From: Pecten maximus
Lineage: Eukaryota
DNA length: 64,000 bases
Direction: 5' to 3'
Assembly: GCF_902652985.1 (NCBI RefSeq)
Contig: NC_047024.1
Coordinates: 22,382,001 to 22,446,000 of the forward strand
A model generated the notes under the pieces. The model was given only the letters and a program-made list of their open reading frames with translations, made no database searches and was not told where the DNA came from. The position numbers and the translations under genes are program-made. Of the stretch, positions 12,390 to 49,100 are shown one piece after another (positions within the stretch are counted from its first letter, which is position 1; every line of letters starts with the position of its first letter).

Positions 12390-13170
12390 ATAGAAATAGC
12401 AAATACAGAAATATACAGAAAATGTAGAAATGGCATACAGAAAATATAGAAATATACAGAAAATATAGAAATATACAGAAAATGTAGAAATGGCATACAG
12501 AAAATATAGAAATATACAGAAAATGTAGAAATGGCATACAGAACATATAGAAATATACAGAAAATGTAGAAATGGCATACAAAAAATATAGAAATATACA
12601 GAAAATATAGAAATATACAGAAAATGTAGAAATGGCATACAGAAAATATAGAAATATACAGAAAATATAGAAATATACAGAAAATGTAGAAATGGCATAC
12701 AGAAAATATAGAAATATACAGAAAATGTAGAAATGGCATACAGAAAATATAGAAATATACAGAAAATATAGAAATATACAGAAAATGTAGAAATACAGAA
12801 AATATAGAAATATACAGAAAATGTAGAAATGGCATACAGAAAATATAGAAATTACAGAAAATGTAGAAATGGCATACAGAAAACATAGAAATATACAGAA
12901 AATGTAGAAATGGCATACAGAAAATATAGAAATATACAGAAAATGTAGAAATGGCATACAGAAAATGTAGAAATAGCATACAGAAAATATAGAAATATAC
13001 AGAAAATGTAGAAATAGCATACAGAAAATGTAGAAATAGCATACAGAAAATATAGAAATATACAGAAAATGTAGAAATAGCATACAGAAAATGTAGAAAT
13101 ATCGCACAGAAAATAGAGAAACTTCGCATGAAAAAATAAAGAAATATTGCATACAGAAAATATAGAAATA
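12390..13170. repeat. Purine-rich minisatellite with mixed 20/22-bp units (ATACAGAAAATRTAGAAAT[GGC])
   Basis: About 37 directly visible units. A degenerate continuation lies at 13380-13480. Confidence 0.95.
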
Positions 13171-20312: not shown

Positions 20313-23300
20313 GTCTGGTCATTATTCATCAAGGAAATTAAAACAAAATTAATTAAGACCATATACTGGTAACAGAAAAACTTTTCCAATTTTAATATAT
20401 TTGTACATGTAATGAACAAAACAGCTAAATATTGCACTACAATGCTGGTAGGATTTTCATATCATTGGCAAAGTCATCACAAAAACATTTTTAATAGGCT
20501 TTGTAATAATACCCAATACCTTGATTATACTGTAATAAGCCCAGGGGGCAAACACATATATTAAGGGGTTGAGCTTTTTGGATTAATTTGAATCGATCGT
20601 CCGAAACCCAAGAGACTCAAATGACAAGAGCAATACAGATCTATCCGGAGTCTTATGAGTTTTTGACCATTATCATAATCATGTTAATTTTATACAAGAC
20701 ATTTCAGGGAATAAGTCCCCCAACAGGTGTGAAATCAAAAGACAAAAATTAGGTGAAATCATACTAATCATAGTAGTGTAGGAAATAAAGCCCAGAAAAG
20801 GCTTTCCTTTAAAATAGGTCAAAGGTCAAAATGTAGGTAAGAGTAACCTACTTTTGATACATGGCAAAGTGCCTTATGCAGGGCTGTTTTCGTTGACAAA
20901 GACTTTCAAGGTCTGCATTAATTTAATATCTGCAGGTCCGTCAAGATATAGGCCTGAAATATTACATTTAAAAACAAACAAACCGGTTTGTTCGCATAAA
21001 TGAACAGGCCTTAGATGAAGCCATACCCAGAGTATGAAACTCCAGTGACAACAAGTAATGAAGAAGACAGAGGAAGGATGCATGAAAGTACAGATGGATA
21101 GAACACAAAACTATAACATCCCTCCCCCAGTTTCTGGTAGGGGACTATTAATTAAGGAATCACAGGGACTTGGTATATTTCCTACCCATGGTCTTTATAT
21201 ATGTACAGTACATACACATATTATCATACCCTCTAGATCTACACATGTACATATTACCATACCCTGTGTTGGAAACATACATTTAATTTGACTAGTTGAA
21301 TAGTTTATTGCTTCGCATTACTCACTGATTACATAATAATCTAGTATTTAAAATTAAGTACCCCTAGCTAGTCAAAGGGTTACTCTCTCAAAACACACTG
21401 AATAAATCTAACTACATGTACTTCAAGCAGTTACTTCCCCTTAAATCAATTTGTCATATCAATGTGTACATATATATTTGTCTGTATTTCTTACCACCTG
21501 TTGTTACTAAGGAGAATACTTAGATAGGCTATGTCTGATGTCTAATCCTATTGACGTTTTTCTATGTCAATAAAATTTGTTGGAACTGAAATTGAAATTT
21601 TGACTAGTTCAGACAAGGAAGATGGATCAAGAGATATCTGGAGTTCATGATAACAAACTACCTTACTGTGCCACAAGTGGAGACGCAGCCTTCCAACAGG
21701 GCAAGTTAGTTTGTTGTATAGTGCAGGACATGGTAGGGCCTCATGTTGAACATCATTGGTATTATTGTAAGTATTCCTCATTATGGAAGACAAATTACAG
21801 TAGAAATAATGAGTAAAGGACCAATATCATAAAATGACAGAAGAATCATGTTGTACTACATATATACCAGATAAACTGATATGAAATTGTCTGTCTAGTA
21901 GACTCTACTAGTACTATATACATGTATAACATGAAACTTTAGTTGTGCATACATTTTCGGGGTTTATATATACTAAGAATATTAATATTGTAAGTATTAT
22001 TGTTATATTATTGTTGTATGGGCTAACCTAGAAAGTTTGTATCCAAAAAATAATTTGAAAGCTCCCAACCATAGACTAAAGTACACACACAAACATTTAA
22101 TGATATACAGTACACGTACATGACCTGACACTTAGACACAAAATTATTAATTAAATTTAATTTTTTTTTCAATTTTCACAAATGAAATGGTCACCAGACA
22201 GACAATGACATAATCAGTTTCCTTTATCTTCGATTCTTTCTTTCAAACATCAGGATAAACCTAATTATATCTGCAATAATTGTTAATGAAAATACAAAAA
22301 TGTCCTAGATTTCTTTAAGAAATATGTATGTGTTAAATTGAATTCAACATAGTTTGAATGCTTATATTATATCGCTCATTATTTGCTCTTGGACCCATCA
22401 CCCATAAAAAACAAAAACGTGTTATTACACATTATTTTGTACACTTTTGTATCCAACTTGTGTACTTACATCGAGAGAATATATTATTTTAATAAAAAAG
22501 ACAATTTGAATGTGTTTTGTTGCGCCGTTTTTTATTTTGGGCAATATTTTATGTGCAATGTCGCCATTTACGGCAAGCTGAAAACGGACAATTTCAACAT
22601 CGAATTTTTAGACTGGTATTAAATAAACTCAAAGAAGGCAAAACCAAAAACTGAAAGGATAGTTTTTCTAATCGTTATTTAAAGAACATATTCTGTATGT
22701 AAATCAGTCTTTAATCTCGTCGGTAAAGGAATAAAACGGTTTTGTAAGCGGCACGTTTCTTCACGTAACGTCTGTCACTTTGTTAACATATTGATGAATG
22801 GTCTAAATCTGTGAAAATATAACAAAATGTGGATGTTTCAATGGTTATTCCTCATGAAAAGATATTATATTTGTAATATATGTAAACAAATCATAGTTAT
22901 AAAGCGTAGGTTTCCACACATTCATCGTCGTTTAACTCATGCGTAATGTCTGTCACACGGAGTGCTGGTTACGTGCTATAATTAGATCATGTGGAAAACA
23001 CATTTTGGAAAACACCGTGTGCAAAAAATGTGTACAATATGAATATTTATGAGCTCCCGGTATGCTTTGCGGTGACCTTCCCGGGAATCGTTGATTGTGA
23101 AGATGGTACACACTTGTTGAAGACGGTCCGTACGGAAGTTACGTGATCGAGGTAAGTAGTCCAAAGTTACGTGAATCACAACATATCAACATATACAAGT
23201 CAAACTAAACGATATATTTTGTAAACAAATGTTTTTTTTTCACATACGATACATTGACAAATCAATGTTTGAGGCCATCACGATCGATGACAGAATGTAA

Positions 23301-24582
23301 ACAATCACATATGTGCATTTTGTTCACATATGACGGACACGATCATCGATTCACGTAACACCTGACAGACAAGCATGTTACGTGAGATTGAAACTTCGGT
23401 TACATCGAATTAAATAAACTACTGTTTACTCTTGTAAAATATGTATTCTAATGATTGAACTTTGGAAAGTATATTATATGACAAAATAAAATCACGGTCT
23501 TAAAAATAACTGATATATTACACATGTGTCTGTCATTTGTCCACACATGTTACGTGACATTTCTGTTCCGTTACGTGCGATGTTTGATAATTGTAACCAG
23601 TTTAATATTTAAGAAAACTGACTTTAGCTTGATTTTATTTCCTTTTTTATAGAAACAATGTTAACAATAGGTTCAAGATCATTTTAAACTACACTTAATT
23701 TTAAAAAGATAAAGTAAATATGGCCCATTATGAACTTATCATTGCACGAAAATTTGCTGAATTTTAATTTTAATCCACATCTGTTGTCATTCAATATCAC
23801 AAAGAACTATTATTATTTCGTTCAGCCAATGTATATGTATGTGTATTAATAAATTATTATCAATAATCATGATTAAATAAAATTAATTTTGAATCATCAA
23901 GGTGTTATATAAGATCTAGTTAGACTTTTTGTATCTAAATAATTGGAATTTTAAGGAATGTTTTCAACTTTAAACTGTGGAACTTTACATATATTAATAT
24001 TTTATAATTACTGTTATAATAATTATATTGATATATAAACATATATTGATCTACATGTAACACAAAACAGTAACAAATTAATACTATTAAAGTAGGAAAT
24101 ATAATGTAGGCACTCATAAATTGAAAGTTTAAAATGTACGTCCATGCTCGTTTAATCGCATTCATATAGGCTACCAAGGGCAAGTACTATTCTGGTTGAA
24201 AGTTGACCAGGATTTAGTAGCAAAAATAAATAATCTTAATATATATTGTGTCAACAATTACATGTACGAGAATCTTTTGTATTGTCTCTTCGACTGAATC
24301 ATCCATTTCAGACCAGATGTTGCCTTATTGGTCAAATAGAATGGTTTTATTATATATAAAAAAAAAAAAAAAATTATGTATACATTTTAAAACAAGTTTT
24401 GTGATATGAATAAATATGAAATTCATTCTATTTGCTTAATAATTTGATATGACACTAGCTAATATTGGCTCAAAACATACATATAAAAAGTATTTACTTG
24501 GTTGATAAATTCTTTATTGCATATTCACTCAAGTCAGATCCTCATTAAAAAAAACAAATTTCATTGTAGAGTACCAAGCAAC

Positions 24583-27500
24583 ATGCCCAGCAAACTTAAA
24601 GTGGTATTAAAGAATACACACGATAAAGAAAAACATGCTGAGCGAATGCGAGTGGCCAGACATGAATGGTCGGAGGAGCAAAAGCAAAAAAACCGAGAAA
24701 TGTCCAAGATCAGAATGAGGGAATACAGAGAAAGAAAAAAGACGGAGAGAGAAAAGACAAACAATTCAGAAGTCCGAAAAATGGCAACAAGACAAGAAAA
24801 AAAAGCAAAAGAAGAGCAAAATAAAAGAAAAGCTGAATACAGAAAGAAATATAGAGCTGGCTTGTCAAGCCAAAAGAAAAGGCGTATACGAGAAAAAGAT
24901 GCAAAAAGAAAGCAAGAAAAGAGGTGCAAGAATATGATAGGAGCAACGACTGTTGTCCAATCAGTACCTATCACAACTGAGAACACAAAGACCCCTTTGT
25001 CTGACAGTGCTTTAAAAAAGGCTGTCTACCGGGCTAAAAAGAGATTGCCAAAGTCTCCATCCAAATTTGCAGATGTTGTTTCTGGCCTTGTAAGCAATGC
25101 CACACCAAGAAAAAAACTTGCTTTAAGCAATAAAGGATTGGATTCCTCTGAAACAAAGAAAAACTTGGACAATATCCTGCAATCTATCAAAGATGTGGAC
25201 TTAGATATGAGAGGAAGGGACAGAGAGAGTCGTATGAAAAGGAAGAGTTTTATTGGGTCCCTCTCTGAACATGTTAAGAAAAGACACGGAATGACATCAA
25301 CTTTCAGCGCAGCACTTGGCATACAAAGAAAGTACTTTTCACAAGGGTGTCTTAAAGAACAAAAGAAAAGAAAAGACTGCATTGCTAAAGAAACAGAAGA
25401 GTCAATCCAGAACTTTTTTTGTCAAGATAATGTGTCGACTAACTTACCAAACAAAAAAAACATCAAGAAAGATGCTGTAGAGTGTAGAGTTATCCAAGGA
25501 TCACTTCACAGTGTATGGAATAAATGGAAAGAAGCAAATCCCAACAAAGCTATTTCATATGACAAATTCACCAAACTCAAGCCTAAGGTTGTTAAAACAC
25601 AAAAACACAGAAAATACCTGCAGTGTTTGTGTGAATACTGCGAGAATCTAAGATTGAAGATGGTAGCTATCAACAAGCTTTCTCAAGAACAGAAGCCTAC
25701 ACTAAAAATGAAAAGTATCCAGGAGGCCGTGGAGAAGACTCTTTGCCCCAGGACTGGTCCATTCCACAGCCTTAAATGTATTGACAGGGAATGTGTAGAC
25801 TGCGGAACCGGAAAACTGCATGCAGACCTCATTGCTGCATTAGAAGAAAAAGACCAAGAATGGAAAAAGTGGGCGCTACAAGTATCGATAAACAAAAGAA
25901 ATGGTAAAGAAATAAAAAAGAAAGAACTCACAGTTAGTAAAGGAAAAACATCAGAATTGATTGCTGAATTTGAAAAAGAACTCCACTTCCTCTCCAAACA
26001 CTTATTTGAAGCCAATTGGCAAATTTCGCAGTTCGGAATTCTGACCAAAAACATTCCACCTGCAACAATTGCTTTAGCTATTGACTTTGCCGAGAACTAC
26101 TCTTGCATGTCTCAAAATGAAGTACAATCAGCACATTGGTCAAAAGAATCTGTTACAATACATCCCGCAGTTGTTTATTATCAATGTCCCACCTGTCCAG
26201 GTGAAGTGGTGGAGGAGTGTTGCGATATCATCAGCGATGATTTAATACATGATGCCCATGCTGTTAATGCCTTTCTCCATAGAATATTCCAACATCTGAA
26301 AACTAAGAGAGGATTGCAGGTCAATAAAGCATTCATTATGAGCGACGGTTGCGCGGCACAATACAAGTCAAAAATTCCATTTTGTGACGCAGCGAACGCC
26401 ATCACTGAGTTTGGGTTTATAGTGCAGCGCGACTTCTATGGGTCCAGACATGGGAAAAATAGGTGTGATGGGGAGGGGGGCGTTTTAAAATCGAGGGTGA
26501 CAAGGGCGGTCAAAAACGGCGAGGCTGAGATTGTCTCAGCATCAGACTTTTACACCTTTTGTAGGGACAACCTCGAAAAGGACTCCAAAGATGATAATGG
26601 AAAGTGTCTACACAAGAGAAGGCATCTTCTCTATGTTGCATTGGAAAACATTCAAAGACCACGCCCTGAAAGAAACATTCGCACCATTCCAGGCACTCAA
26701 AAAATCCATTCACTGGTTGGCGTTGAAAGGGAAATGGTTAAGACAAGGCGTCTGTCCTGTTTTTGCCAGAATTGCCTATATGGTACACCCGAGAATTGCC
26801 AGCAGAAGGAGTACATAGATCAATGGAAGCCAATTCGCCTGAAATGTATCCTTTATAATGTTAGAATGTTAGAATTTTATATTTATAATTTATATGAAAA
26901 TAATTATCAAATTGGAAAACAAAAATATGACAAAACGATTATAAAAATTCTTGACCCAATTAAGATCTCCAACAACCACAACCAGCTGTTGATGTCCAGC
27001 CCATGGTACAACCTGTTGATGTCCAGCCCATGGTACAGCCTGTTGATGTCCAGCCCATGGTACAGCCTGTTGATGTCCAGCCCATGGTACAACCTGTTGA
27101 TGTCCAGCCCATGGTACAGCCTGTTGATGTCCAGCCCATGGTACAACCTGTTGATGTCCAGCCCATGGTACAGCCTGTTGATGTCCAGTCCATGGTACAG
27201 CCTGTTGATGTCCAGTCCATGGTACAGCCTGTTGATGTCCAACCCATGGTACAGCCTGTTGATGTCCAACCCATGGTACAACCTGTTGACTTCCATCATG
27301 AATTACAGCCACACGATACCATGGTTAGAGTTTTTATTATGATAATCTAGTAATGTTGTTTTTTTCAAATTGAGCTTCATTGAGGTTAACAAAGGATTAA
27401 CATATTCTAAAGTTCATATATATTTTTTTAATCAGGTTCTTGCCCAGTCTGTAGAAGATATTCAAGCCCAATCAGTCCATGACCAGACACAAGATAGTAG

Positions 27501-28934
27501 GGTAAGATAATGAATTATTTCACTGATATCATATTAGGGTATTATTCAATATGATAAAGAGCGAAATAACTTTAAAGCTTATCTGAAATTTAATTTTCTT
27601 AGAAATAAATTGAATTTGTGTAGCATAATGAAGTTCATTTGTATTCTTCAACTTTAGTCTGAAAGAATAGATTGCAGCCTAGATGAAGACGATATGGACA
27701 TATCAGGCCTTACTGGAATTTTGGATGCTTTAGAAGAGGTAAGCAAGTTATAAAAAGCTGACCATTTGCTGAATTCATATACATGTATATAATGACGTGT
27801 TATTCAAAAAAATTAAAACTTTGTGAAGACGCTGTAAACTGTAGCAATATCATTGTCCTTGTGTTTGCCAAATCAAAAATCTCTTCTATCTCGACTATTA
27901 TTTATTGAAGTCATCAATCTGTCTTTTTGTAGGAACCTGAAGATATGGCATTATCACCAATCCTGACATTTATGGAGGTAAGGAAAACATATGGTAGTTA
28001 TATTCCACTGCTTATTTTAACAAAAAAAGGTTGTAAACAGTGAACAGAATTTTTGGCATATGCTTAATTAAAGTTTGTCTTTCTTTTAGGATGCTGTTGT
28101 TGCAGAAAATGATTGTTCTGAAGAAGAGAAAGCGCCACGGTATGAAAATTATTATACATTCAAATTACTAGTTAACTATTTTCATTTAGTCAACATGTTT
28201 CACACGGAATAATTTGTTTACATGACTGTTTCAAATTGCATTAATGACAGGTATATTTTCGCTTTGCTTATAATTACAGACCAGGGGAATTCCTAAAAAT
28301 TAAATTTGGGAATTCAATATTGCCAGCTGTGGTAAGAAATAAGAGTTATTGTTCATTGTTTTGTTTACTCATCATGTTAAAAGTTTTCATTATATATACA
28401 ATTTGATTTAATTAACTAATTGATGCTTCTGACTTTATTCTGTTCAGTTTTAAACTAGGACTCAACTCATAATTGAATAGCTATATATTTTGCAAAAATT
28501 CATCTTCATTTATGCAAATGGTTTCATTAAATGCATCACATCTAATACACGATTTCTATCTTATTGTAACTAAATGAGCTTCAAGTGGATAATTGATATG
28601 GATGTTTTATTCAATTCCAGGTTGATAACTGGCCATTTGTCCATTATTTTAAGAAGTGTACAAAGGGTTGGACTATGCAAGACATCCACCATACCATTAT
28701 TTTTGAAGACATTGATGGTACACTAAAAGCACCAGCAATGGAATCCCAGGGAAGGAGGATAATTTACAAATTTGAAGGTCAGCTTGATGTAAATATTGTA
28801 ATACCATATAATTTTTGTTTGTGTGGTTTCCTTGAAAGAACATTATATATATCAATCATGAATTGATGTTTCTTTTGCTGTACATAGTGATCTGTAATTT
28901 CTTTTTTTCTTTGTTTTTAGAATTAGATTCCTAG
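24583..28934 (+). CDS. Sola-type DDD transposase, spliced, ~1028 aa
   Basis: Exons 24583-26845, 26965-27323, 27436-27501, 27658-27738, 27933-27977, 28090-28139, 28280-28331, 28621-28777 and 28921-28934 are all GT-AG, in phase and stop-free (3087 nt). Motifs: CLCEYCEN, CIDRECVDCG, IDFAENY, SDDLIHD, SDGCAAQYKS, HGKNRCDGEGG, SCFCQNC. Superfamily assigned from remembered motif patterns. Confidence 0.85.
26986..27290 (+). repeat. 27-bp coding minisatellite (~11 units, VDVQPMVQP) in transposase exon 2
   Basis: Unit CTGTTGATGTCCAGCCCATGGTACA(A/G)C. Confidence 0.95.
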
Positions 28935-30593
28935 CTCTTAGTCATGAGCTGAATGAAGTGAAGTAAAAATTCATTAAAGGTTTAGGTAAGGATTTTGTTA
29001 AACTCATAACTTTATGAAATAAGCATGTGCAATAAATTGGACATAACAGACTTTTAATAATAGAATTTATTATTTTGATTTGTAAAAGCTTGATGCCATT
29101 TAACAAATATTATATATATATCAATATTATTATGAAATATGCATTTTTTTCTCTTTCAGAAACACTGGATACCTTGTCTGTAAACTTCAAGAGAGAAAGA
29201 ATGAAAAATTAAAAGATAGCAAATAAATAATGTTAATGTGAAGAACTGTCTTATTTTTTATATTGAAAATTGGCAAAAGCTTCGTGTCAATCGAGTTCTA
29301 AACTGAAACTGAAACAACTGTTCAGTCACTTAACAATCAGATCTAACCAGAATAAATATTCAATGAAATTTCTGTCATGTTACATGAAATGTCTGTCATG
29401 TTACATGATACGTCCGTCAAGTTACATGATTTGTCTGTCAGTGTTACATGACATTTTTTTCAACAATGAATAAAAACAAGATTTCTAATTTTATTATCTT
29501 TTAAAGTGTTTATTCTTAATCAGTAAACCTAGCTCACTCCAAAAAAGCAGAAAAAATAGAAAAATGTTTATTTTGAAAATTTTATATGTCTGTCCCATAG
29601 AATGTGACCAAGAGCAAATAATGAGCCATATTACTGTGTTGAAAAGATTTAAAATATTTGATTATGAATTTGCAGGGTATTGGAGCCATTAACATTTGGA
29701 CGGCATCAGAGGAAATCCTTTGTATCATAAAACTATGAAACTTGCTGTAACATCATTGAGTTTGAAAAATACTGATATTAACATATCTGATCATCATTAC
29801 AATGAAAAATAATTTCATATTTTTTTCTAAACTGCAATAGACAGGGGTTGACTTATTACCAGGCATAGGCTTATTGTCAAATTAGACATGGGTAGCTACC
29901 ACGCATTGGCTTAATTGTCAAATTATTGAAGTACTGGTATACGTATATTCTACAATAACAACAGCACCATGATAAATTGCGTAAATACCAAATAAATAAA
30001 CTGATTTTCAGGCTTGAGATATAAATTTATACACTATAAATATCTGTAAATAAATAAGACAGTGCTAGTCTTATAAACACCTGGCAACACGAAATGGTCA
30101 TTATGGCATATTTTAAAAATCAAAACATCAAAACCAAACATTCCTATATAGTTATAAGGGTACCACACGTAATACTGTAAAGATAACATACTTCATTTGG
30201 CTCACTGAAATTTTAGTGCATTTCCAAATTTTAACAGATTAGCGCAATGATCAATAAATTTGATGAATTGGCACGTCAAAACTATTTTATGCAGAAACAG
30301 TGTATAGAAAGTGCAACTAGCGCAATCATAATTTAGCGGAATGCTTTCAGTGCGAAAAGCACTGAAATAAGATATATACGTTTACAGTAGTTTTGGAAGC
30401 TGTATCATGCATGATCGTGATAATTAACTTTTTTTAAAATCACATTTTGAAGCTATCATGATCAGGGCATATACCTTTTGACATCACTTTGTAAAATTGT
30501 CTGCATTGCACAAAAACCTTTGGCTTTCTCCACATCTAATATTTGAGATGCTATTTTGCATATAAAAACAGCATGTCTGTTGGCTTTGTATAA

Positions 30594-32630
30594 CTATTCT
30601 ATGACATGACAGTTTGCCTGCATCGCGTAACACTGTTTGATTGCCTCCTGGCAGTTGTTGAAATCCTGCCAGGGAAGACACAGGTTCTGCTGCAGGAATT
30701 GTAGGTGTTTGTTCAACACATGAAGGGTGTGTTCTGGTCCCTGATTCCCAGACAGAAACTTCTCTAGGACAGCGCGGAAGACTTTGTCCGAGCATTCCAG
30801 CGTAAGAATGGTCTTGGCAAGCTTCTGTGTGTACTTACAGATGGTACACTTGGCAGTTTTCGTGGTGGTGTTGACTGTTGACAAAGCACCGTTACACTTT
30901 TCACACTTGTAAGTAGGCGTCTCGCTAGGTATGTTGAAATACATCGGCCACACATTCTGACAGGGGAGACAATTACATACAAATTGGTACTGCGACAGCT
31001 TTTTTTGGCGATCAGATTTTGTACTCACTGCATACACTGCGCCATAGTTATCCAAGATTTCTTGACCCTTTGAAATTTTCTTGATGGCTCTCACTACACA
31101 AGTATCCCCGTAGGAATGACGGACGACATCTGGATCACACGAGTGGTTGAATAGACTAAGCATTGCATATATGGCAGAACCAATTTCTTCCCCAAGAGAT
31201 TCAGCAACCATAGTTCTCCTCAATTTTAATTCAGAAACTTCATGAGCGTTGCATGGAAGCATCTGTATGTGACGAAGAATGTGACCTCCTATATACATCA
31301 GGTCCTCCTGTCGTCTTTCTGTCGAAGGAACAAAAGAGGAATTCTCTATGCATTTCACAAGGAAAACAGTGTTAATTGTCCTTTTCAAAAGATCTGTAGT
31401 AGTTCGTTTTTCACAATGATTCACTAAGTTGTAGACAGTGTTGTAGTCATTGGAGTCATAAACCCCATCCTTGTTGAACCCCGATCCAAATGAATCACCA
31501 ACTCCATCAGCTATATTCTTATATTCCTTCAAATACTCAAATCCAGCTTTCAGAACCATTCGAAATGACAGATGTCCCAAACCCAGCTGAGCAGCTTGAA
31601 TATCACCAAGATGTTCGCATTCTACGTAATGATAGGTATCCCAAGATTCCCTTTCACACTGACGTGAACAGTAGCCAACTCCAGCACAATTACGACACGG
31701 GAACGGACAGAATAATTTCTCGCAGCAGTTGTGACAATTTGATACGCTAAATCCTGGCAATGTCACCGACATATAGGCTTTCTCTACAACAAGGACATCA
31801 CCAATGTTTATGTCGTCTGTTGCATATATGCCACGACCGGTTTCCTCACTTTCTTCCATGGTAACGGCAATAGATGCATTGGGAAATTTCTTGCTTCTTT
31901 GTGTTATCACTGGTAGAGCAGAATGACACTTGTTACACTCAGCTTGGGTTTTCATAACTTTTTTATGTTGATCATCTTTCATTTTGTCACAAGCTACAAT
32001 CAACTTGTCCAATTCCTCTGTTATCTTTTTAACTTTATCTTCATCCAAGTCAGATATCTTTATTTGATTTTTCGCTTTCTCAAATGCTTTAATTGCCTCT
32101 TCTCCCCATTTCAACTGCATGTAACACTTTCCTTTCCTGTCGTAAAGTTTGTACTGCAGATTTTCTGGATAACCATTTTCTAAAGCAAGCTCAATGTCTG
32201 CCAGACACAATTCATCCTTTGCCATATGAAACAACACTGCTGATCTATTTGCAAATGCCAAGGCTAAAGTTGGAGTTTTATCAATGTTACCATTATCTTC
32301 ATTAGAATTACTGCTTCGCCAGGGTGAGAAGAGAACACTCTGTGTATACAAATCAAGAGCCTGCTTGTATTTCTTCTTTTGGAAAAAAGCATTTCCCTGG
32401 TTACGAAGACTAACAGCTACTTCGTCACATTTTTCTCTGAAATTTGGATTTGCCTGAATGACATCTTGTGCAATTGGAAGTTTATAAATCAAACTCACTC
32501 GTTCTTCATTAGATGTGCACTTATCAAATTTCTTTCTCAATTCTTCCAAGTTTCCTTCATCTCTTAAGCTGTCAGCAATTTTATCATACCATTCATCTGC
32601 ATTGTTCTTGTTCTGTGAAGTAGATGCCAT
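30594..32630 (-). CDS. SMYD4: SMYD4-like SET and MYND domain lysine methyltransferase (~678 aa, single coding exon)
   Basis: N-terminal TPRs (RNQGNAFF..., FANRSAVL), split SET domain (GRGIYAT; LFNHSCDP; EILDNYG), MYND finger (CHNC..CRNC..YCSRQC..H..EC) and post-SET CNCLPC. ATG at 32630, with a splice acceptor at 32652-32653. Confidence 0.88.
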   Translation of the reverse strand: MASTSQNKNNADEWYDKIADSLRDEGNLEELRKKFDKCTSNEERVSLIYKLPIAQDVIQANPNFREKCDEVAVSLRNQGNAFFQKKKYKQALDLYTQSVLFSPWRSSNSNEDNGNIDKTPTLALAFANRSAVLFHMAKDELCLADIELALENGYPENLQYKLYDRKGKCYMQLKWGEEAIKAFEKAKNQIKISDLDEDKVKKITEELDKLIVACDKMKDDQHKKVMKTQAECNKCHSALPVITQRSKKFPNASIAVTMEESEETGRGIYATDDINIGDVLVVEKAYMSVTLPGFSVSNCHNCCEKLFCPFPCRNCAGVGYCSRQCERESWDTYHYVECEHLGDIQAAQLGLGHLSFRMVLKAGFEYLKEYKNIADGVGDSFGSGFNKDGVYDSNDYNTVYNLVNHCEKRTTTDLLKRTINTVFLVKCIENSSFVPSTERRQEDLMYIGGHILRHIQMLPCNAHEVSELKLRRTMVAESLGEEIGSAIYAMLSLFNHSCDPDVVRHSYGDTCVVRAIKKISKGQEILDNYGAVYAVSTKSDRQKKLSQYQFVCNCLPCQNVWPMYFNIPSETPTYKCEKCNGALSTVNTTTKTAKCTICKYTQKLAKTILTLECSDKVFRAVLEKFLSGNQGPEHTLHVLNKHLQFLQQNLCLPWQDFNNCQEAIKQCYAMQANCHVIE

Positions 32631-32795
32631 TGTAATGGAGAGCTGGTGCACCTAGAAGACAAAAATATGAAACTAGAGTATTGATTTAATTAATCTATAA
32701 ACAATTAAATCTAGTTAGAATACATAATGGGTGACAGGTTTTCTCCTATTTTGTATATTCACGACTATTCTGTATAATATGAGAGGAAAAATGTA

Positions 32796-37173: not shown

Positions 37174-40100
37174 TCAGTCCTCGTAGTCCGGATTCTTTCT
37201 CAGTATTACGAAGCCTTCCATCAGTGGACTCAGCGGTAGGTCTGTTCCAGGTTAAGGAAACAACTTACATGATTTATACATCCCATCGTTCCCCAAAGAT
37301 AATCTAGTGATATCAGTTTTATAATACCACTCAATACCAACTTACAGGATTTATATGTGTACTGTAAATCACTTAGATTTCATGAACTTACATTTCCAGG
37401 CATTTTCACGAATACATGGTTTCGCAATCATTGATCTAGAAATGATTTTGAATTCACAAATGATGAGCTATTAGTGTCACAGACTCTGCAAGACTCCCAT
37501 ATTGGAAACCATAGCTTGGTTGCCATCCGAAGGTGTTATTTTCGTACAAATAATTATGAAGAATTTTAATTCACAATTGACTCTCCTCACATATATTTAT
37601 GTGAAAATAAATCCATTGCGATAAATATAAATAATTTACAGTAACCCTCAAAACTGATAGCCTAATGAAAACATTCAGGATTATATAAGGATTTAGAGCC
37701 CCCCTCAAAACTGATAGTCTGGTGAAAACATATAGGATTTTATAAGGATTTATAGCCCTGGCCACTGATAGCCTGGTGCATAGCCCCCGCCCTCAAAACT
37801 GATTGTCTGGTGAAAACATAGGATTTTATAGAGATTTATAGCGCTGGCCCTCAAAACTGAAAGCCTGGTGAAAACATAGGATTTTATAGGGATTTATAGC
37901 CCCCGGCCCTCAAAACTGATAGCCTACCGGTAGTGAAAACATAGGATTATAAAGGGATTTATAACCCACCCTCAAAACTGATAGCCTGGTGAAAAGATGC
38001 AGGTTCTTGTAGCCTTTTATATGACAAAATCTCTTGACAACATAAAAGTTGTATATATCTTCTCAAAACTGACCTAGTAGAGACAGAATTTTTAATACTG
38101 TAAGCCAAATCTTTTGACAGCATACAGGTTCCATATAGCTCCTCAGTACCACCGACCTACGGTCAGCACCAGGCAACTGGCCAACGTAAGTTTCGAACTC
38201 ATAACCCAGAGTTGGAGGGCTAGAGATAAATTGTCAGGATACCTTAACCATTCAGCGACTGCGGCCCGTTACCAATGTGTTTAATTGCTCACCATACGAA
38301 AAGAGTTTCAAAATTCTATTTGAGTTCTAAGAAACCAAAGGCATACATCTTATTTGAATCCTGACTTCGTAGTTTTATTTCAAATTTCTCTTTAAAACCC
38401 AATAATATAATAGGATTTCATCAAAAGAAAGGATACATTCCTCCGTGGCAAGTTCCGCCCTCTCGCCATAAGCCAACAGTACTGGTGTGGTATGTGTCTG
38501 GAATCCAGTGATGGTTTTTGGCTTACCTGCTTGCCCAACTACATCAACAGCCTGTCGAGGATAAAGAACACAGCTATAACCTACAAACATTACAGTTTTT
38601 CTCCCAAATGATATTGGTTAATAACACGTTCTCCCTAATAATATCGGTTAATAACACTTTCTCGCTTATAATATTGGTTAATAACACTTTCTCCCTAACA
38701 ATATTGGTTAATAACACGTTCTCCCTAACAATATTGGTTAATAACACTTTCTCCCTAATAATATTGGTTAATAACACTTTCTCCCTAATAATATTGGTTA
38801 ATAACACTTTCTCCCTAATAATATTGGTTAATAACACTTTCTCCTTAATAATATAGGTTAATAACACTTTCTCCCTAATAATATTGGTTAATAACACTTT
38901 CTCCCTAACAATACTGGTTAATAACACTTTCTCCCTAATAATATTGGTAAATAACACTTTCTCCCTAATAATATTGGTTAATTACACTTTCTCCCTATTA
39001 ATATTGGTTAATAACACTTTCTCCCTAACAATATTGGTTATTATTATATAATGTGTATTTATCCATATTCTCATTGGCTAAATCGCTAACACGTGACTTT
39101 TGATAAATAGCGATAATAACTGGTTTCCAAAGCAAAACCAGTTAATATCAAAACAAGAGGCCCATGGGGCCTGTATCGCTCACCTGGTTGGATTTGACCA
39201 AATGTCAAAATAATGTTCATGTTCAATTCCTTTTGTTTGTTAACCTCAAACAATGCTATTTATGGTTATAGCGTGGGGATCCCAACTGCTTTAAAGAAAT
39301 AATGAAGTCCAGACTCTCTGAGTTTACAACATGCATTTATAACTTTATGACTAGTAGTGATTTAAAGGAATTACCTCTATTTCCTATATGGGGCCCCGCC
39401 CCTTTTGCCCCTCGGGGGTCAGAGTCACCATTTATGCAAAATCTGTTCCCCTTCCCCCAAGAATGTTTCTTACCAAATTGGGTTCAAATCCATTCATAAC
39501 TTTATGACTAGTAGCGATTTTAAGGAATTACCTCTATTTCCCCATTAGGCCCCGCCCCTTTGGCCCCTTGGGGGTCAGAGTCACCATTTATGCAAAATCT
39601 GTTCCCCTTCCCCAAAGAATGCTTCTGACCAAATTGGGTTCAAATCCATTCATAAATTTATGACAAGTAGCGATTTAAAGGAATTACCTCTATTTCCCAT
39701 ATGGGGCCCCGCCCCTTTGGCCCCTTGGGGGTCAGAGTCACCATTTATGCAAAATCTGCTCCCCTTCCCCAAAAGATGTTTCTTATTAAATTGGGTTCAA
39801 ATCCATTCATAACTTTATGACTAGTAGCGATTTAAAGGAATTACCTCTATTTCCCATATGGGGCCCCGCCTCTTTGGCCCCTCAGGGGTCAGTCACCATT
39901 TATGCAAAATCTGTTCCCCTTCACATAAGAATGTTTCTGACCAATTTGGGTATAAATCCATTCATAACTTTATGACTAGTAGCGATTTGAAGGAATTACC
40001 TTTATTTCCCCATTAGGCCCTGCCCCTTTGGCCCCTTGGGGTCAGAGTCACCATTTATGCAAAATCTGTTCCCCTTTCCCAAAGGATGTTTCTTACTAAA

Positions 40101-43100
40101 TTGCGTTAAAAACCATTCATAACTTTATGACTAGTAGCGATTTAAAGGAATTACCTCTATTTCCCATATGGGGCCCCGCCCCTTTGGCCCCTTGGGGGTC
40201 AGAGTCACCATTTATGCAAAATCTGTTCCCCTTTCCCAAAGGATGTTTCTTACTAAATTGCGTTAAAAACCATTCATAACTTTATGACTAGTAGCGATTT
40301 AAAGGAATTACCTCTATTTCCCATTTGGGGCCCCGCCCCTTTGGCCCCTTGGGGGTCAGAGTCACCATTTATGCAAAATCTGTTCCCCTTCCCCCAATGA
40401 TGTTTTTGACCAAATTCGGTTCAAATCCATTCATAACTTTATGACTAGTAGCGATTTAAAGATATTACCTCTGTTTCCCCATTAGGCCCCGCCCCTTTGG
40501 TCCTTTGGGGGTCAGAGTAACCATTTATGCAAAATCTGTTCCCCTTCACATAAGAATGTTTCTGACCAAATTGGGTTCAAATCTATTCATACCTTTATGA
40601 CTAGTAGCGATTTGAAGGAATTACCTCTATTTCCCCATTAGGCCCCGCCCCTTTGGCCCCTTGGGGGTCAGAGTCACCATTTATGCAAAATCTATTCCCC
40701 ATCCCCAAAGGATGTTTCTGACCAAATTGGGTTCAAATCCATTCATAACTTTATGACTAGTAGCGATTTAAAGGAATTGCCTCTATTTCCCCATTAGGCC
40801 CCGCCCCTTTGGCCCCTTGGGAGTCAGAGTCACCATTTATGCAAAATCTATTTTCCATCCCCAAAGGATGTTTCTGACCAAATTGGGTTCAAATCCATTC
40901 ATAACTTTATGACTAGTAGCGATTTAAAGGAATTGCCTCAATTTCCCCTATTGGGCCCCGCCCCTCAGGCCCCTTGGGGGTCAGAGTCACCATTTATGCA
41001 AAATCTGTTCCCCTTTCCTAAAGGATGTTTCTGACCAAATTGGGTTCAAATCCATTCATAACTTTATGACTAGTAGCGATTTTAAGGAATTACCTCTATT
41101 TCCCCTAATGGACCCCGCCCCTTTGGCCCCTTGGGGGTCAGAGTAACCATTTATGCAAAATCTGTTCCCCTTCCCCAAAGGATGTTTCTGACCAAATTGG
41201 GTTCAAATCCATTCATAACTTTATGACTAGTAGCGATTTGAAGGAATCACCTCTATTTCCCCATTAGGCCCCGCCCCTTTGGCCCCTTGGGGGTCAGAGT
41301 CACCATTTATGCAAAATCTGTTCCCCTTCCCCAAAGAATGTTTCTGATCAAATTGGGTTCAAATCCATTCATAACTTTATGACTAGTAGCGATTTAAAGG
41401 AATTACCTCTATTTCCCCATTAGGCCCTGCCCCTTTGGCCCCTTGGGGGTCAGAGTAACCATTTATGCAAAATCTGTTCCCCTTCCCCAAAGGATGTTTC
41501 TGACCAAATTGGGTTCAAATCCATTCATAACTTTATGACTAGTAGCGATTTAAAGGAATTGCCTCAATTTCCCCTATTGGGCCCCGCCCCTCAGGCCCCT
41601 TGGGGGTCAGAGTCACCATTTATGCAAAATCTGATCCCCTTCTGCCAAGGATGTTTCTGACCAAATTTGGTCAAAATCCAATAAGAACTTTTTGACTAGT
41701 AGCGATTTGAAGCAAATGTTGACGGACGGACGACGGACGACGGACGCTGCACCATGGCATAAGCTCACCGGACCTTCGGTCCAGGTGAGCTAAAAACCAG
41801 TTAATAACACCGGCGCTAAAAAAAGATTATGACAAACCAGTTAATAACACCTCCGCTAAAAACAGATTCTGGAAATACCCTACCGGAAGTTACGTAATAC
41901 CATAGCAACGCATAGGAAATGGCTGCGTCTGCTGTTTCGCCGGATTCGAGTCCTAAAAAAATGTGGTTTGCGTCTCTAAACGATGAGAACATTAACAAGT
42001 TAATGACAGAAAAGGATTCCATAAACACAAGAAGAGCGACAGACTCAGCTGTAAAAAATTTTAAGGAATATTTAAAAGAAAAGAACGTGGCAGAGGACGT
42101 TGAGACTTTGGACTTTGAGTTGAGTACGTTTATCATTTCATCATATATACTTTGATTATATAATAAAACAGTTATGGACTTTTTATGGACTTTTCGGCTT
42201 TGCCTCGGTCAATATTAGTTCCATTCTGGTTAATATCAGAGCATATTAACCAAGTAAAAAGTCCATAATTGTATAATAACACATTCTCCCTAATAATATT
42301 GGTTAATAACACTTTCTCTCTTATAATATTGGTTAATAACACGTTCTCCCTAATAATATTGGTTAATAACACGTTCTCCCTAATAATATTGGTTAATAAC
42401 ACTTTCTCCCTAATAATATTGGTTAATAACACGTTCTCCCTAATAATATTGGTTAATAACACGTTCTCCCTAATAATATTGGTTAATAACACTTTCTCTC
42501 TTATAATATTGGTTAATAACACTTTCTCCCTAATAATATTGGTTAATAACACGTTCTCCCTAATAATATTGGTTAATAACACGTTCTCCCTAATAATATT
42601 GGTTAATAACACTTTCTCTCTTATAATATTGGTTAATAACACTTTCTCCCTAATAATATTGGTTAATAACACTTTCTCCCTAATAATATTGGTTAATAAC
42701 ACGTTCCCCCTAATAATATTGGTTAATAACACGTTCTCCCTAATAATATTGGTTAATAACACTTTCTCCCTAATAATATTGGTTAATAACACGTTATCCC
42801 TAATAATATCAGTTAATAACACTTTCTCTCTTATAATATTGGTTAATAACACGTTCTCCCTAATAATATTGGTTAATAACACTTTCTCCCTAACAATATT
42901 GGTTATTATTATATAATGTGTATTTATCCATATTCTCATTGGCTAAATCGCTAACACGTGACTTTTGATAAATAGCGATATTAACTGGTTTCCAAAGCAA
43001 AACCAGTTAATATCAAAAAACCAGTTAATAACACCGGCGCTAAAAATAGATTATGAAAAACCAGTTAATAACACCTCCGCTAAAAATAGATTCTGGAAAT

Positions 43101-46100
43101 ACCCTACCGGAAGTTACGTAATACCATAGCAACGCATAGGAAATGGCTGCGTCTGCTGTTTCGCTGGATTCGAGTCCTAAAAAAATGCGGTTTGCGTCTC
43201 TAAACGATGAGAACATTAACAAGTTAATGACAGAAAAGGATTCTATAAACACAAGAAGAGCGACAGACTCTGCTGTAAAAAAATTTAAGGAATATTTAAA
43301 AGAAAAGAACGTGGCAGAGGACGTTGAGACTTTGGACTTTGAGTTGAGTACATTTATCATTTCATCATATATACTTTGATTATATAATAAAACAGTTATG
43401 GACTTTTTACTTGGTTAATATGCTCTGATATTAACCAGAATGTAACCATATTGACCTCGGCTTTGCCTCGGTCACTATTAGTTCCATTCTGGTTAATATC
43501 AGAGCATATTAACCAAGTAAAAAGTCCATAATTGTATAATAACACATTCTCCCTAATAATATTGGTTAATAACACATTCTCCCTAATAATATTGGTTAAT
43601 AACACTTTCTCCCTAATAATATTGGTTAATAACACTTTCTCCCTAACAATATTGGTTAATAACACGTTCTCCCTAACAATATTGGTTAATAAAACTTTCT
43701 CCCTAATAATATTGGTTAATAACACTTTCTCCCTAACAATATTGGTTAATAACACGTTCTCCCTAATAATATTGGTTAATAACACTTTTCTCCCTAATAA
43801 TATTGGTTAATAACACTTTCTCCCTAATAATATTGGTTAATAACACTTGAATATTGTATCATCATATCATGTTTTACTATTATAAACACCAAAATATTGC
43901 TTTATATTGTATCCTCATGACTTAAACAACACAATACCAAACAATGTGTTGTCACGATAAAGACACATAACAATTCTCATTGTAGTATTTTTATTACCTG
44001 TCCAACTCTCACAGGAACAGGAAGTGGTCGAAGTTCCTCATCGAAGGTAGTTAACATACGCGGCTGCATGGCCGCCACAAGGTGGTATAAGATGTAATGA
44101 GATTTACCTAGGATGACTGCAACAAAAATCAGCAAAGTGAAATAACATGAGACAAATATCAGAGCAGCTATCATGTACATGTATATATATATATATGGAA
44201 ATAATTTTCAACTGAAGCAAATTACAAAGGAGATATAAATATTAGCATGAAGGAATTGATACGACGTAACTTGTTCTTGGAAATACAGACATTCTGGGTC
44301 TTTCATTATATGCATGTGATATCATCAATAGAATTTACACTGTTTCATTTCCATAAAACATGTGCAATATTTTTCAATATCAAAACCTTGAAATTCTTGT
44401 TGACAAAGATCTTCATTTATATCTTCAATATCTGCCTTATGGTTGAAAGTGAAATAGAGCTTACAGTAGTATATATGTACAATTTACTTCCTCAACAACA
44501 GACATTGACAACAGTGAATACTTACGATTTTTTACATCAAGACAGGAGACGAGGACAGCCATAAGCCCGGCGACTGCGACTGGTGACATGAGGGTTCGGT
44601 CGCTGTGGTAGGGAGAAAGAGTCAGTGTTCCCTTGCCCAAATGAGCCAGACCTTGTGCTAGACGCACCATGAACAAGTTATTAGGGTCCTTAGCATGGTA
44701 CACAGCTAATTGTCTTAACATAGCAGCTAGACGAGCATTATTTGTTCCTACAAAAAAAAATACAAAATAACAGTCAAACCTGAAATCATTTATTATAAAA
44801 AAGTACACTTAATTTACCAGACTAATGACATGTATTTATTTTACTGTAATTTCAAACCCTTCAGATATATTTTTAAAGAACTAATACTCTGTGACGAAAG
44901 TATTTTGAAACTCTTATAATTCTATGAAGACAAACACATAAAGACTTAAATACTATATACATCTTTTAGCAGTATAAATCTTAATTGAGTGATTTTAACA
45001 CTTAAAGCATTCCGCTAAATTTTGATCATGCTAACGAGTGTAATATTGTACAATGCTTTCTATGGCAAGCATTTTCAATTTGTAGCACCAATTCACAATG
45101 GTGCTAATCTCTTTCATAGGTAATTTGGATACATCCTAAATTTGAACGTGCCATAATAAGTATAACTTTACAGTACCATACGTATCCAAAAATAAGCTCT
45201 TTCTCACAAATAAGCCCTCTTCCTAATTTTTGCAGAATCACCAATGTTATGATAGTAAGCTAAGAGGCTCACAAATAAGCCTTTCCCAACTTTAATATTT
45301 AACTTTCACTCTAGGCAAGGGGGCTTATTTTAAGAGGAATAGGGTTTCATATTTCTCAAATAGCTGGTACATATAGACAAACAAGTTTTACCTGCTCCAA
45401 CAAGGCCCATGGACAAAATAGCATTATGGGCCACCTCAGTGTCATTGTCGTGAGAGAACTTGCTCAGTGTGTCCAGAATATTTAATTTGGGGTTAGACAC
45501 AGAAATCAGACCAAGGGCAAGTGGTACTGCTCGCTTTATTGCCGGTTCACCATATCGCAGCTAGAAATAACAAGTGAATTACAAAAGTATGAATATCAAT
45601 GTTGAGATGTTTTTCATTTCTATCAGATAAAAAACATGTATAAAATTTAAATCCTAAATTGCTATTAATGGGAATATTTTCTGAATTGAAGACTGAGCTG
45701 ACTGCAATTAGTGTTCAAAGAATGTTAATAGCATGACTGCTTATATTGACTTACCAAGTGTCCAAAAGCTCTAAAAGACATTTCTGAACCAATTTCTTCC
45801 CCCATAGCTATCAAACCCACACCTAATACTGCAATTCCTGAAAAAATCAAAACAATGGCTGTCAAATCATAAGCTCAAACATCAGCAATACAGTAATATT
45901 TACAATATTCCTTGAGAATCATTAACGAGTCAAAATATCAACAACTAAGATCACTGAAAATGATATCACATATTACAGACCAACAGTGACAACTTCAGTT
46001 CAGTGAAGTCAAACATGTAATAGAAACAGCCTTGTTTATTCAGCAGCTTATAAATGTAAACAATTCCGTGATGACATTATTATTCACACCAAACCATTTT

Positions 46101-49100
46101 TAAATATTCAACTCGCCACTGCACAAATGTGAAAATAATTAAACATTAGATTTCGCCACTGCACAAATGTGAAAATAATTAAACATTAGATCAGCTATCA
46201 AACTTTTATTTCATTTTAATTATTATATATAAATCAAAATTTCCATATATGCTCAGAATTTGTCACCAACATTGATCAACTTTGTCAGTCCTTTTAAAGT
46301 GATCTATTACACCTACAGAACATAAAACTGATTTCATACCCTGTTGTGAAGATAGATCTGCACTTGTTGACTCTTTTTCTTTTTCCTTTTCTTTTTCTTT
46401 AGTATCCTTTTTCTTCTTGTCATCTTTCTTTTCATTATTTTCCTGAAAAATAGATTAAAACAATTGCTGTAAATATGCTTGAGGTCATCATATCAAATCA
46501 TCATACTGAATATACAATAGGTCTCTAATCATTACTGTAACAATATTTATGTAAGCATAACATATTCCAAAGACGTTGATATAATAGTTACATGGACTGG
46601 AGATCAGAACCCTTAGGTTATGAAGATGCTAATGGCAGAAATGCAGTCTTTATTTCCAATAAACTGTTCAACAGTAAAAGACAAACCTGGTCTTTGGACT
46701 CATCGTGTTCAGAGCAGACATGCAACAAATGTTGGATTTTCAGTACATTCCCAGTGCCTGATAAAACGAAATATTTGAGACAATTACAATATGAAACACG
46801 CTGAAAAACATTTGGTAAATGTAATTAAAACATTTCTTCTTACTACTAGAAACAATGTTAAACAAAACCAAGTACATACTAATCAATTCACAAAGTCAAT
46901 TTTCTTTAAACTTACATAATTTTCCAATACATAGTAAAAATATTCTAAAACTTTTCATTAATATTAACAGCAATGAAATCATACTTATATATGGTGGTGC
47001 CAAAAAGCAATTTTGTTCTAAAATTACTGCAAGCCTAAGTAGATGTCCCAGTTCTGTATAATTTACACCTGCCAAATGTTTTGTTCTCACTGAATAAAAT
47101 GTTAAAAGTTGATACAGTGTCTATAATAACAATGTAGAGGCTACATACCAGCGTAGGCACACACATCAACCAGCATTCGCGCCATTGACTTAAGAGGCTC
47201 TGCAATCACTTCAAGTGCCACCAGAGTAGCCTCAACAGCATCCTGTTTACCTGTAATCATAGTTACACAGATCTGGTTTAAAATTGCTGCTTTATTATTT
47301 TAAACCACTTCAGATGAATTTCAAGATTAAAATAATGTTAACTTGTAATTCATTTAATTCTGTTTTGCAATTACTTCAAAAAAATTCAAATGTAGCCTTT
47401 TGAATCATCAAAAACATCACAATGCAGAAGTAAACATATGGAATGTAACCAGTCAAGAATAATGGGATACGGTTGTAATCTTACCTAGGTATGTCAGAGC
47501 AAGTCCGAGGGCCAGAAATCGTGAGTATGTATCCTTAAGATCAGCTTCAGACCTCTCCATCATGGTCTGTATGATGGTAGAGGTAACATCTCCATTACAG
47601 CTTCCCACAGATATCATACCACAAGCCAAGGCCGCCATCCCTACAACCTATAAACAAACACAGATATCATACCACAAGGCTGGACCGCCATCCCTACAAC
47701 CTATACACAAACACAGATATCATACCACAAGCCAGGGCCGCCATCCCTACAACCTATACACAAACACAGATATCATACCACAAGCCAGGGCCGCCATCCC
47801 TACAACCTATAAATAAACACAGATATCATACCACAAGCCAGGGCCGCCATCCCTACAACCTATAAATAAATACAGATATCATACCACAAGCCTGGGCCGC
47901 CATCCCTACATCCTATACACAAACACAGATATCATACCATAAGCCAAGGCCGCCATCTCTACAACCTATACACAAACACAGATATCATACCACAAGCCAG
48001 GGCCGCCATCCCTACAACCTATAAATAAACACATATCATACCACAAGCCAGGGCCGCCATCCCTACAACCTATAAATAAACACAGATATCATACCACAAG
48101 CCAGGGCCGCCATCCCTACATCCTATACACAAACACAGATATCATACCACAAGCCAGGGCCGCCATCCCTACATCCTATACACAAACACAGATATCATAC
48201 CATAAGCCAAGGCCGCCATCTCTACAACCTATACACAAACACAGATATCATACCACAAGCCAGGGCCGCCATCCCTACAACCTATAAACAAACACAGATA
48301 TCATACCACAAGCCAGGGCCGCCATCTCTACAACCTATACACAAACACAGATATCATACCACAAGCCAGGGCCGCCATCCCTACAACCTATAAATAAACA
48401 CAGATATCATACCACAAGCCAGGGCCGCCATCCCTACAACCTATAAATAAACACAGATATCATACCACAAGCCAGGGCCGCCATCTCTACAACCTATACA
48501 CAAACACAGATATCATACCACAAGCCAGGGCCGCCATCCCTACAACCTATAAATAAACTCAGATATCATACCACAAGCCAGGGCCGCCATCCCTACATCC
48601 TATACACAAACACAGATATCATACCACAAGCCAAGGCCGCCATCTCTACATCCTATACAAGCTAGGGCCGCCATCACAACCGATATAACCAGATATACCA
48701 CAAGCCAGGGCCGCCATCCCTACATCCTATAAACAAACACAGATATCATACCACAAGCCAAGGCCGCCATCTCTACATCCTATAAACAAACACAGATATC
48801 ATACCACAAGCCAGGGCCGCCATCCCTACAACCTATAAACAAACACAGATATCATACCACAAGCCAGGGCCGCCATCCCTACAACCTATACACAAACACA
48901 GATATCATACCACAAGCCAGGCCGCCATCTCTACAACCTATACACAAACACAGATATCGTACCACAAGCCAAGGCCGCCATCTCTACATCCTATAAACAA
49001 ACACAGATATCGTACCACAAGCCAAGGCCGCCATCCCTACAACCTATAAACAAACACAGATATCATACCACAAGCCAGAGCTGCCATCCCTACAACCTAT

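Follow-up and report, generated by a model that had tools for sequence, protein, structure and literature searches.

An uncharacterized gene of Pecten maximus, LOC117336235, raises two questions: whether it belongs to the host or to a mobile element, and how its product comes to be made from nine coding exons. The gene lies in the 64,000-nucleotide stretch analyzed here (the window; NC_047024.1, positions 22,382,001 to 22,446,000), which is on contig C10 of the host genome assembly (G000) that we searched for element copies, Sola loci, and small nuclear RNA (snRNA) genes. We favor the reading, with a probability of about 0.7, that it encodes the transposase of a five-copy, Sola2-like cut-and-paste transposon in which a U12-type intron and a frame-shifting cassette exon would together limit production of the full-length transposase. 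The parts of this reading differ in strength: that the element is Sola2-like and recently mobile is very likely; that intron 1 is truly U12-dependent and common to a clade of relatives is, judging from its splice signals, probable; and that the intron and the cassette exon are put to regulatory use is tentative, a little short of even odds.

The element extends from 22373 to 29627 (7,255 bp) and is flanked by an exact ATAT target-site duplication (TSD; 22369-22372 and 29628-29631), as had been predicted from the sequence. Its terminal inverted repeats (TIRs), at 22373-22398 on the plus strand and 29602-29627 on the minus strand, were originally called perfect, which is not quite so: 19 of the 20 terminal bases pair, the mismatch being the terminal base (C at the left end here, G in all four other copies), and 23 of 26 nucleotides match over the longer arm. 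Those four copies were recovered together with the window copy by a DNA search of the assembly, and a TIR pattern search returned exactly the ten ends of the five copies, nine of which start with G, plus one unrelated end. A lone TIR-like end, with one mismatch, lies at C15:32250571-32250590. Each copy has its own flanks and its own 4-bp TSD (ATAT three times, AAAT, and AGAT), and pairwise differences among the five are 0.46 to 0.76%. This is a low-copy, recently mobile family and not a fixed single gene; the original prediction had taken the element to be recent and multi-copy as opposed to single-copy and domesticated, and the copy count, the identity of the copies, and their separate TSDs bear it out.

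Only the window copy has an open frame. The other four are all broken: the copies on C3603 and C3959 have frameshifts, the two C13 copies have lost 1.3 and 3.2 kb, and stops occur in two. Some small indels among the copies may be assembly errors. Differences in exon 1 are mostly non-synonymous (22 of 27 over four comparisons, one shared change being counted four times), as expected for decay after insertion. At 16 shared sites the window copy also has a base found in none of the other four. One could therefore propose that this copy was domesticated by the host and that the remaining copies are its decayed duplicates, since it is the sole open-frame copy, is transcribed, has lost its terminal G, and stands apart at those 16 sites, and U12 introns are typical of old host genes. 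However, all five copies carry TIRs, a 4-bp TSD of their own, and unrelated flanks, they have diverged by less than 1%, and Mytilus and Ostrea records show relatives at several loci. Five copies with as many separate flanks make domestication unlikely, and we regard this proposal as very improbable.

The transposon reading is also consistent with the protein. Coding exon 1 (24583-26845, plus strand; 754 codons plus one base) specifies a basic N-terminus, a Cys-rich segment, an RNase H-like core with Asp residues D501, D588, and D629, and then a C-terminal CxCxxC motif. The GRG...CYC termini associated with Sola2 are evidently not strict. The element here has ends GGC...GCC, and published Sola2 ends (GAA, GAG, and GTT) are likewise not all GRG. 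In the published Sola2 description (Repbase; PMC3627910), the motif order is DF(A/S)ENY, Q.EVQS.HW, SDG...QYK, HGK..CDG.GG, the same as here, and DFAENY (D501), SDG..QYK (D588), and HGK..CDG.GG (D629) match its alignment by eye. The same source gives Sola2 an upstream CxC..HEN-type Cys motif, short TIRs, a 4-bp AT-rich TSD, and ends that begin with G and finish with C, all as in this element apart from the C at the left end of the window copy; the TSD is 4 bp and AT-rich in all five copies, with AGAT departing from the published AWWT. The original assignment to Sola thus agrees with the core motifs, the three Asp residues, the TSD, and the G...C ends, and the narrower label Sola2 follows from motifs and ends, not from a tree with Sola1-3 references. 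A Pfam search of the transposase matched no family. For a structural model of the relative P0005 (the relative, not the window protein; mean predicted local distance difference test [pLDDT] score of 68.6), the top 11 structural matches are retroviral integrases (Z 8.2 to 8.8, root-mean-square deviation [rmsd] 3.7 to 4.5), the best having Z 8.8 and rmsd 3.7 over 142 aligned residues, and an integrase-like (RNase H) fold is predicted for the core. Foldseek returned no match at E <= 0.001 for the P0005 core model or for the C-terminal barrel model described below. What sets the element apart from Sola2 as described is its nine coding exons, a U12-type intron, a cassette exon, and a predicted C-terminal SH3-like barrel.

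At least 92 matches to the transposase core are present in the host assembly. Several of them, grouped in near-identical sets (L035-L038, L039-L040, and L044-L047), have long open frames, which suggests that there is more than one young Sola family. A decayed sister element is found at C12:11415316-11416092, with exons 4-8 at 66-85% identity and no core nearby. An automatic search for TIRs and TSDs at 14 other Sola loci gave nothing credible within 10-kb stretches. Outside the assembly, no relatives were found among viral contigs, prokaryote genomes gave one distant match, and metagenome contigs gave 31 relative loci, of which three were examined (L060-L062) and one falls in the intron-bearing clade discussed below. 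The ESM Atlas contains unnamed clusters at 0.91, which we treat as a lead only, and precomputed Pfam assignments give OTU (PF02338) or SET (PF00856) domains to some Sola relatives (P0054, P0062, P0096, P0097, and P0102).

The spliced nine-exon model is stop-free over 1,028 amino acids (aa), as predicted, and the long six-frame open reading frame (ORF) does misread the C-terminus, running 951 aa from stop to stop and passing through a 27-bp repeat in the wrong frame. Not all eight coding introns are canonical as had been supposed, and the departure is intron 1 (26846-26964, plus strand), which is 119 nucleotides (nt) long and in phase 1, with an AAG acceptor. Its donor is GTATCCTTT at 26846, and a branch-like box, TTCTTGAC, has its A ten bases before the AG end; a U12 branch box is expected 10 to 20 nt before the acceptor. 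The joint of 26845 to 26965 is unambiguous in transcript contigs from three of four runs (X6, X7, and X11), and the intron is also spliced in RefSeq isoforms X1 and X2. Position 26846 is the only nearby donor in frame with the acceptor at 26964; the candidates 26860 and 26868 do not keep the frame and were discarded. GTATCCTT follows 3 of the 3,239 plus-strand GT dinucleotides in the window. The U12 consensus, as given in PMC2831892, has the donor ATATCCTT and the branch box TCCTTAAC, with a GT subtype named, and the intron 1 donor fits the RTATCCTT 5' splice site. The branch-like box agrees with TCCTTAAC at six of eight bases and pairs in register with host U12 through two G-U pairs. By this in-register count, intron 1 scores 6.0 against 4.0 to 5.5 for the nine other introns, the best of 10 by a narrow lead. 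Two other copies still have the donor, in identical form, one with a change just before the branch-like box. Searches for U11 and U12 found one U11 gene (98 bits) and two U12 genes (107 and 106 bits) in the host genome, all above the Rfam cut-off. Taken from these signals, intron 1 is likely removed by the minor spliceosome.

Alternatively, intron 1 could be an ordinary major-spliceosome intron with a weak donor, with GTATCCTTT kept because reading through it gives a useful short isoform ending in xIL. The GT-AG ends and the imperfect branch box would suit this, as would the finding that read-through stops within one residue of xIL in Mytilus and two other clusters, a tidy end just past the core. 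However, the read-through tails past xIL range from none to about 165 residues and have nothing else in common, and the conservation covers exactly the U12 donor positions. GTATCC is also a poor fit to the U1-type GTRAGT of the gene's other introns, and the branch-like box lies at the distance expected for U12. We therefore consider an ordinary intron improbable and a U12-type intron the better description.

The intron leaves a trace in the proteins of related elements, in which gene calling blind to introns turns N|GT ATC CTT T into [CRSG]-I-L-[LFY..]. This read-through mark was sought in 267 relatives, 219 of which cover the end of the core (220 with the window protein), and it stands exactly seven residues past the last conserved Trp in 16 of the 220. 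At 90% non-redundancy, [CRS]-I-L occurs at the same residue in 6 of 199 relatives, and all six tips belong to one 11-tip clade, with Shimodaira-Hasegawa-like approximate likelihood ratio test support of 99 in a quick tree built from the 70 nearest relatives. Two further tips gain the mark from their cluster mates (P0274, with CILW, and P0277-P0279, with RIL and a stop), so that 8 of the 11 are marked, at 51-54% core identity; the other three (Argopecten, Ostrea, and Mytilus californianus) are spliced gene models, where it would not be visible. Within one Mytilus cluster both forms occur, a contig-called ...RLKCILL and a modeled ...RLKSFNRN, which places its intron at the same base. Outside the clade the mark is present in 0 of 188 relatives, one protein having a similar triplet three residues off. 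At the DNA level the donor is seen in three of the element's own copies and in metagenome locus L060, which has C|GCATCCTTT at the site and falls in the clade on a long branch; otherwise the mark is at the protein level. Intron 1 at the same spot is thus likely in related elements of mussels and other hosts.

Within the host assembly, the intron 1 donor is absent from all 26 other Sola loci scored (27 were examined), the best match having five of nine bases. Several of these loci have an ordinary-looking phase-1 donor 17 to 32 bases downstream, and the twelve that were placed in the tree all fall outside the clade. The apparent restriction of the intron to one clade points to a gain, not to ancient inheritance. 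At the outgroup Sola locus L042 (C19:10.68 Mb), CGTATCAAC is coding sequence at the U12-donor position and a phase-1 GTATGT donor lies 32 bases on; this may be a proto-site for birth of a U12 donor from exon sequence, or chance.

The second departure from simple expression concerns exon 7, a 52-nt cassette (28280-28331, plus strand) that codes for the start of the C-terminal barrel, the remainder being encoded by exon 8 (28621-28777, plus strand). Transcript evidence comes from contigs assembled from 4 of 24 listed runs (X6, X7, X10, and X11), whose RNA nature is guessed or unknown; the tables for X6 and X7 are nearly the same, and the two probably represent a single data set. Contig joints at GT..AG are exact for six of the eight coding introns (1-5 and 8) and for an intron in the 3' untranslated region (UTR), and no joints of this kind occur in X10. 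Private bases of the window copy, at 24914 and 26587, are present in the main X6 contig, so that this copy, or a close allele, is the transcribed one; in X11 a C13 deletion copy is also spliced. On one X10 contig, the left flank before 22368 differs from those of all five copies and has no match in the assembly; it is possibly that of a sixth, polymorphic insertion. In the sole contig over exons 6-8 (X6/X7), exon 6 is spliced directly to exon 8 without exon 7, and the resulting model is, letter for letter, RefSeq isoform X2 (989 aa); RefSeq isoform X1 includes exon 7 and then runs on into intron 7. Removal of intron 7 is never seen in the Pecten maximus contigs or RefSeq models. The junctions that had been predicted for the nine-exon gene are therefore upheld for introns 1-5 and 8, but not around exon 7. 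Similarly, the suggestion that the element is intact and potentially active stands insofar as the window copy is the sole open-frame, transcribed copy, and is weakened by loss of the terminal G and by the only mRNA seen across the 3' part being without exon 7 and hence without the C-terminal domain.

The domain encoded by exons 7 and 8 is also encoded in other Sola families of the host assembly. A GT donor follows the PAV codons in 9 of the 10 other loci examined, and the exon is 52 or 58 nt in most, lengths that shift the frame if it is skipped; in the window gene, skipping leads to exon 8 being read in the +1 frame. Both forms are modeled in Mytilus trossulus, isoform X2 with the domain and isoform X1 with a tail that is a +1-frame reading of exon 8, compatible at 57 of 57 positions. 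Shifted exon 8 is likewise recognized in the tails of Argopecten and M. californianus (0 of 200 shuffles for each), and two control tails give no such signal (186 and 171 of 200 shuffles). The skipped form is thus the one modeled in Pecten, Argopecten, and two Mytilus species. A model of the Mytilus C-terminal domain (mean pLDDT 89.8) is an all-beta barrel, and we predict an SH3-like barrel; because it resembles BAH, Tudor, and PWWP domains equally (Z 7.0 to 7.5), tied at Z about 7, we assign it to no family. The Mytilus C-terminal region, used as a query, retrieved nothing beyond its own cluster, and a barrel profile did not match the intronless C-terminal domains of L051, L054, and L055, whose likeness to it is an impression only. 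The usual rule for nonsense-mediated decay sets a distance of 50 to 55 nt. The last junction is 116 nt downstream of the stop when exon 7 is skipped and 51 nt downstream in the full form, so that decay of the skipped form would be favored if that rule holds in molluscs.

The mechanism that we propose would begin with a promoter in the CpG-rich left arm driving a pre-mRNA whose intron 1, gained once in the ancestor of the clade and then kept, would need U11/U12 for its removal; retention would yield the core without the linker and barrel. Inclusion of exon 7 would give the 1,028-aa form with the SH3-like barrel, likely the active enzyme, and skipping would give the 989-aa form or an mRNA open to nonsense-mediated decay, as in the P-element IVS3 switch; most of the transcripts seen would appear to fail at the inclusion step. 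The short form need not be a repressor, since it keeps the catalytic core. The RNase H-like DDD core would cut at G-ended TIRs and insert at AT-rich sites with a 4-bp duplication. Terminal transposon bases are usually required for cleavage, and the window copy, having lost its terminal G, is probably a helper, more likely to supply enzyme in trans than to move itself. The minor spliceosome is reported to be slower and possibly rate-limiting (PMC2952598), and dependence on it may act as a throttle. The fullest version, in which the lineage gained a minor intron de novo, carried it through many hosts, and combined it with the cassette exon in a two-step throttle tying the transposase to the minor spliceosome and to particular tissues, is speculative, and we hold it at appreciably less than even odds.

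The same structural claims could be accepted and the function denied: the U12 intron, acquired once, may be hard to lose, and skipping may be noise at a small exon. Small exons of non-triplet length are often skipped. A pan-eukaryotic survey also credits neutral processes with much of minor-intron evolution (PMC10639083). Yet loss or conversion of U12 introns is described as far outstripping gain (PMC2831892), and 8 of the 11 tips still carry the mark, with core identity at 51-54%; the skip recurs in the models from Pecten, Argopecten, and the two Mytilus species. We regard neutrality as a substantial minority possibility.

Several observations weigh against the throttled-transposon reading itself. 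For intron 1, the branch-like box is off TCCTTAAC at two of its eight bases with only a narrow lead over the other introns, free duplex folding of the splice sites with U11/U12 did not discriminate among introns, and the role of U11/U12 is argued from signals. The donor in most relatives is read from protein and not from DNA, the sole outside DNA example starts with GC and looks decayed, and the intron is not visible in the three spliced-model tips of the 11, of which the Ostrea model (SIQ) could represent an intron-less state. The count of 0 of 188 overstates absence, because most outgroup proteins come without DNA and some are spliced models, and gain is favored over loss by parsimony only, the trees being quick and midpoint-rooted. 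For exon 7, the skip is known from one contig set plus gene models, the match of the Ostrea tail to shifted exon 8 is borderline (10 of 200 shuffles), and when only the rows of the other families are used the Mytilus X1 tail does no better than shuffled sequence (129 of 200). The full 1,028-aa nine-exon mRNA was not seen in Pecten maximus, in contigs that drop rare forms. Finally, we infer both the regulatory effect and transposition from sequence.

Intron-bearing transposases are already known, and in molluscs Tc1-like elements, a different superfamily, are reported to have spliceosomal introns (Puzakov et al. 2020). The gene structure had been called unusually gene-like; a spliced, multi-exon transposase is indeed present, but its intron-rich 3' half is not peculiar, being common, exons 7-8 included, to other Sola families here. 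Intron 1 resembles the U12-type GT-AG introns of animal host genes (PMC2831892 and PMC10639083), with the same RTATCCTT donor, a TCCTTAAC-like box near the acceptor, phase 1, and a conserved position, but it lies in a mobile transposase gene and apparently in one clade only. As in the Drosophila P element (PMC7776569), alternative splicing of a DNA transposase would give full and C-terminally truncated forms; here it is exon skipping that keeps the catalytic core and removes the barrel alone, a U12-type intron is present in addition, and the system is known from sequence and contigs. A link between DNA transposons and new minor introns has also been proposed for Physarum (10.1101/2020.10.12.336362), where the element becomes the intron; in the scallop element the intron lies within the transposase gene and moves with it. 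One survey counts a single clear minor-intron gain among metazoans (PMC2831892), and Physarum is described as an extremely rare case of such gain (PMC10639083). The latter survey includes Pecten maximus; one supplement does not name this locus, and its online database may list the intron under an uncharacterized gene. Full-text literature searches, covering listings and the starts of abstracts, with subscription journals and Repbase Reports outside their range, returned no description of a transposase gene with a U12-type intron.

Minor introns are thought to be almost all ancient, and a clade-confined U12-type intron with intron-less sister lineages in the same genome is thus a candidate gain. 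It would place a transposon lineage in likely dependence on splicing machinery normally tied to ancient host genes, and would allow direct tests of how minor introns arise, of neutral retention, and of slow splicing as a brake. If correct, a U12 gain could be dated in a gene that is non-essential and can be cloned, and the clade would be predicted not to work in hosts that lack a minor spliceosome. The cassette exon is a second possible splicing switch beside that of the P element, in a superfamily for which we found no mechanistic work in the literature. Annotation labels such genes as uncharacterized host genes, and minor-intron catalogues may contain them unrecognized.

Other features of the element complete its description. 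The left arm (22500-23600) contains several TTACGTGA-type motifs and is CpG-rich as predicted, with observed/expected ratios of 1.47 and 1.45 over 22500-23499 against 0.46 for the whole window; it is likely a promoter and subterminal binding region. A candidate intron in the 5' UTR (23152-24569, plus strand), recognized by its splice sites, gave no joint in any of the four runs, and silence of the contigs is no evidence against it. Downstream of intron 1, exon 2 (26965-27323, plus strand) contains an 11.3-copy, 27-bp repeat coding for QPVDVQPMV, identified by a repeat scan and longer in two other copies of the element. Exons 3-6 (27436-27501, 27658-27738, 27933-27977, and 28090-28139, plus strand) encode an acidic linker, and introns 2-5, like their contig joints, are ordinary GT-AG. 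Exon 9 (28921-28985, plus strand) contains the full-form stop codon at 28932-28934. The predicted 3' UTR intron (28986-29159, plus strand) is the one spliced in the contigs, and the predicted AATAAA, a candidate polyadenylation signal, is present at 29222-29227 on the plus strand. A right subterminal 21-bp tandem repeat (29363-29451; 4.2 copies, with a TGTTACATGA core) differs in copy number between element copies. Dozens of arrays resembling it at 76-87% occur elsewhere in the assembly (C11, C13, C14, C15, C19, and C930) and are possibly subterminal arrays of other Sola families.

Beyond the element, an intronless 684-aa ORF on the minus strand (30594-32651), with matches to SET, TPR, and MYND, is SMYD4-like; its 3' end is about 1 kb away from the transposon, whose right junction is spanned by X6 contigs. 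An array of about 15 copies of a 157-bp unit (39334-41712, 91% match) is flanked by 30-bp arrays at 38598-39040, 42274-42905, and 43537-43848, and together these may form one composite repeat. Further tandem arrays are found at 12401-13121 (19-60 bp), 47606-49336 (53 bp), 61297-62339 (30 bp), and 63588-64000 (56 bp).

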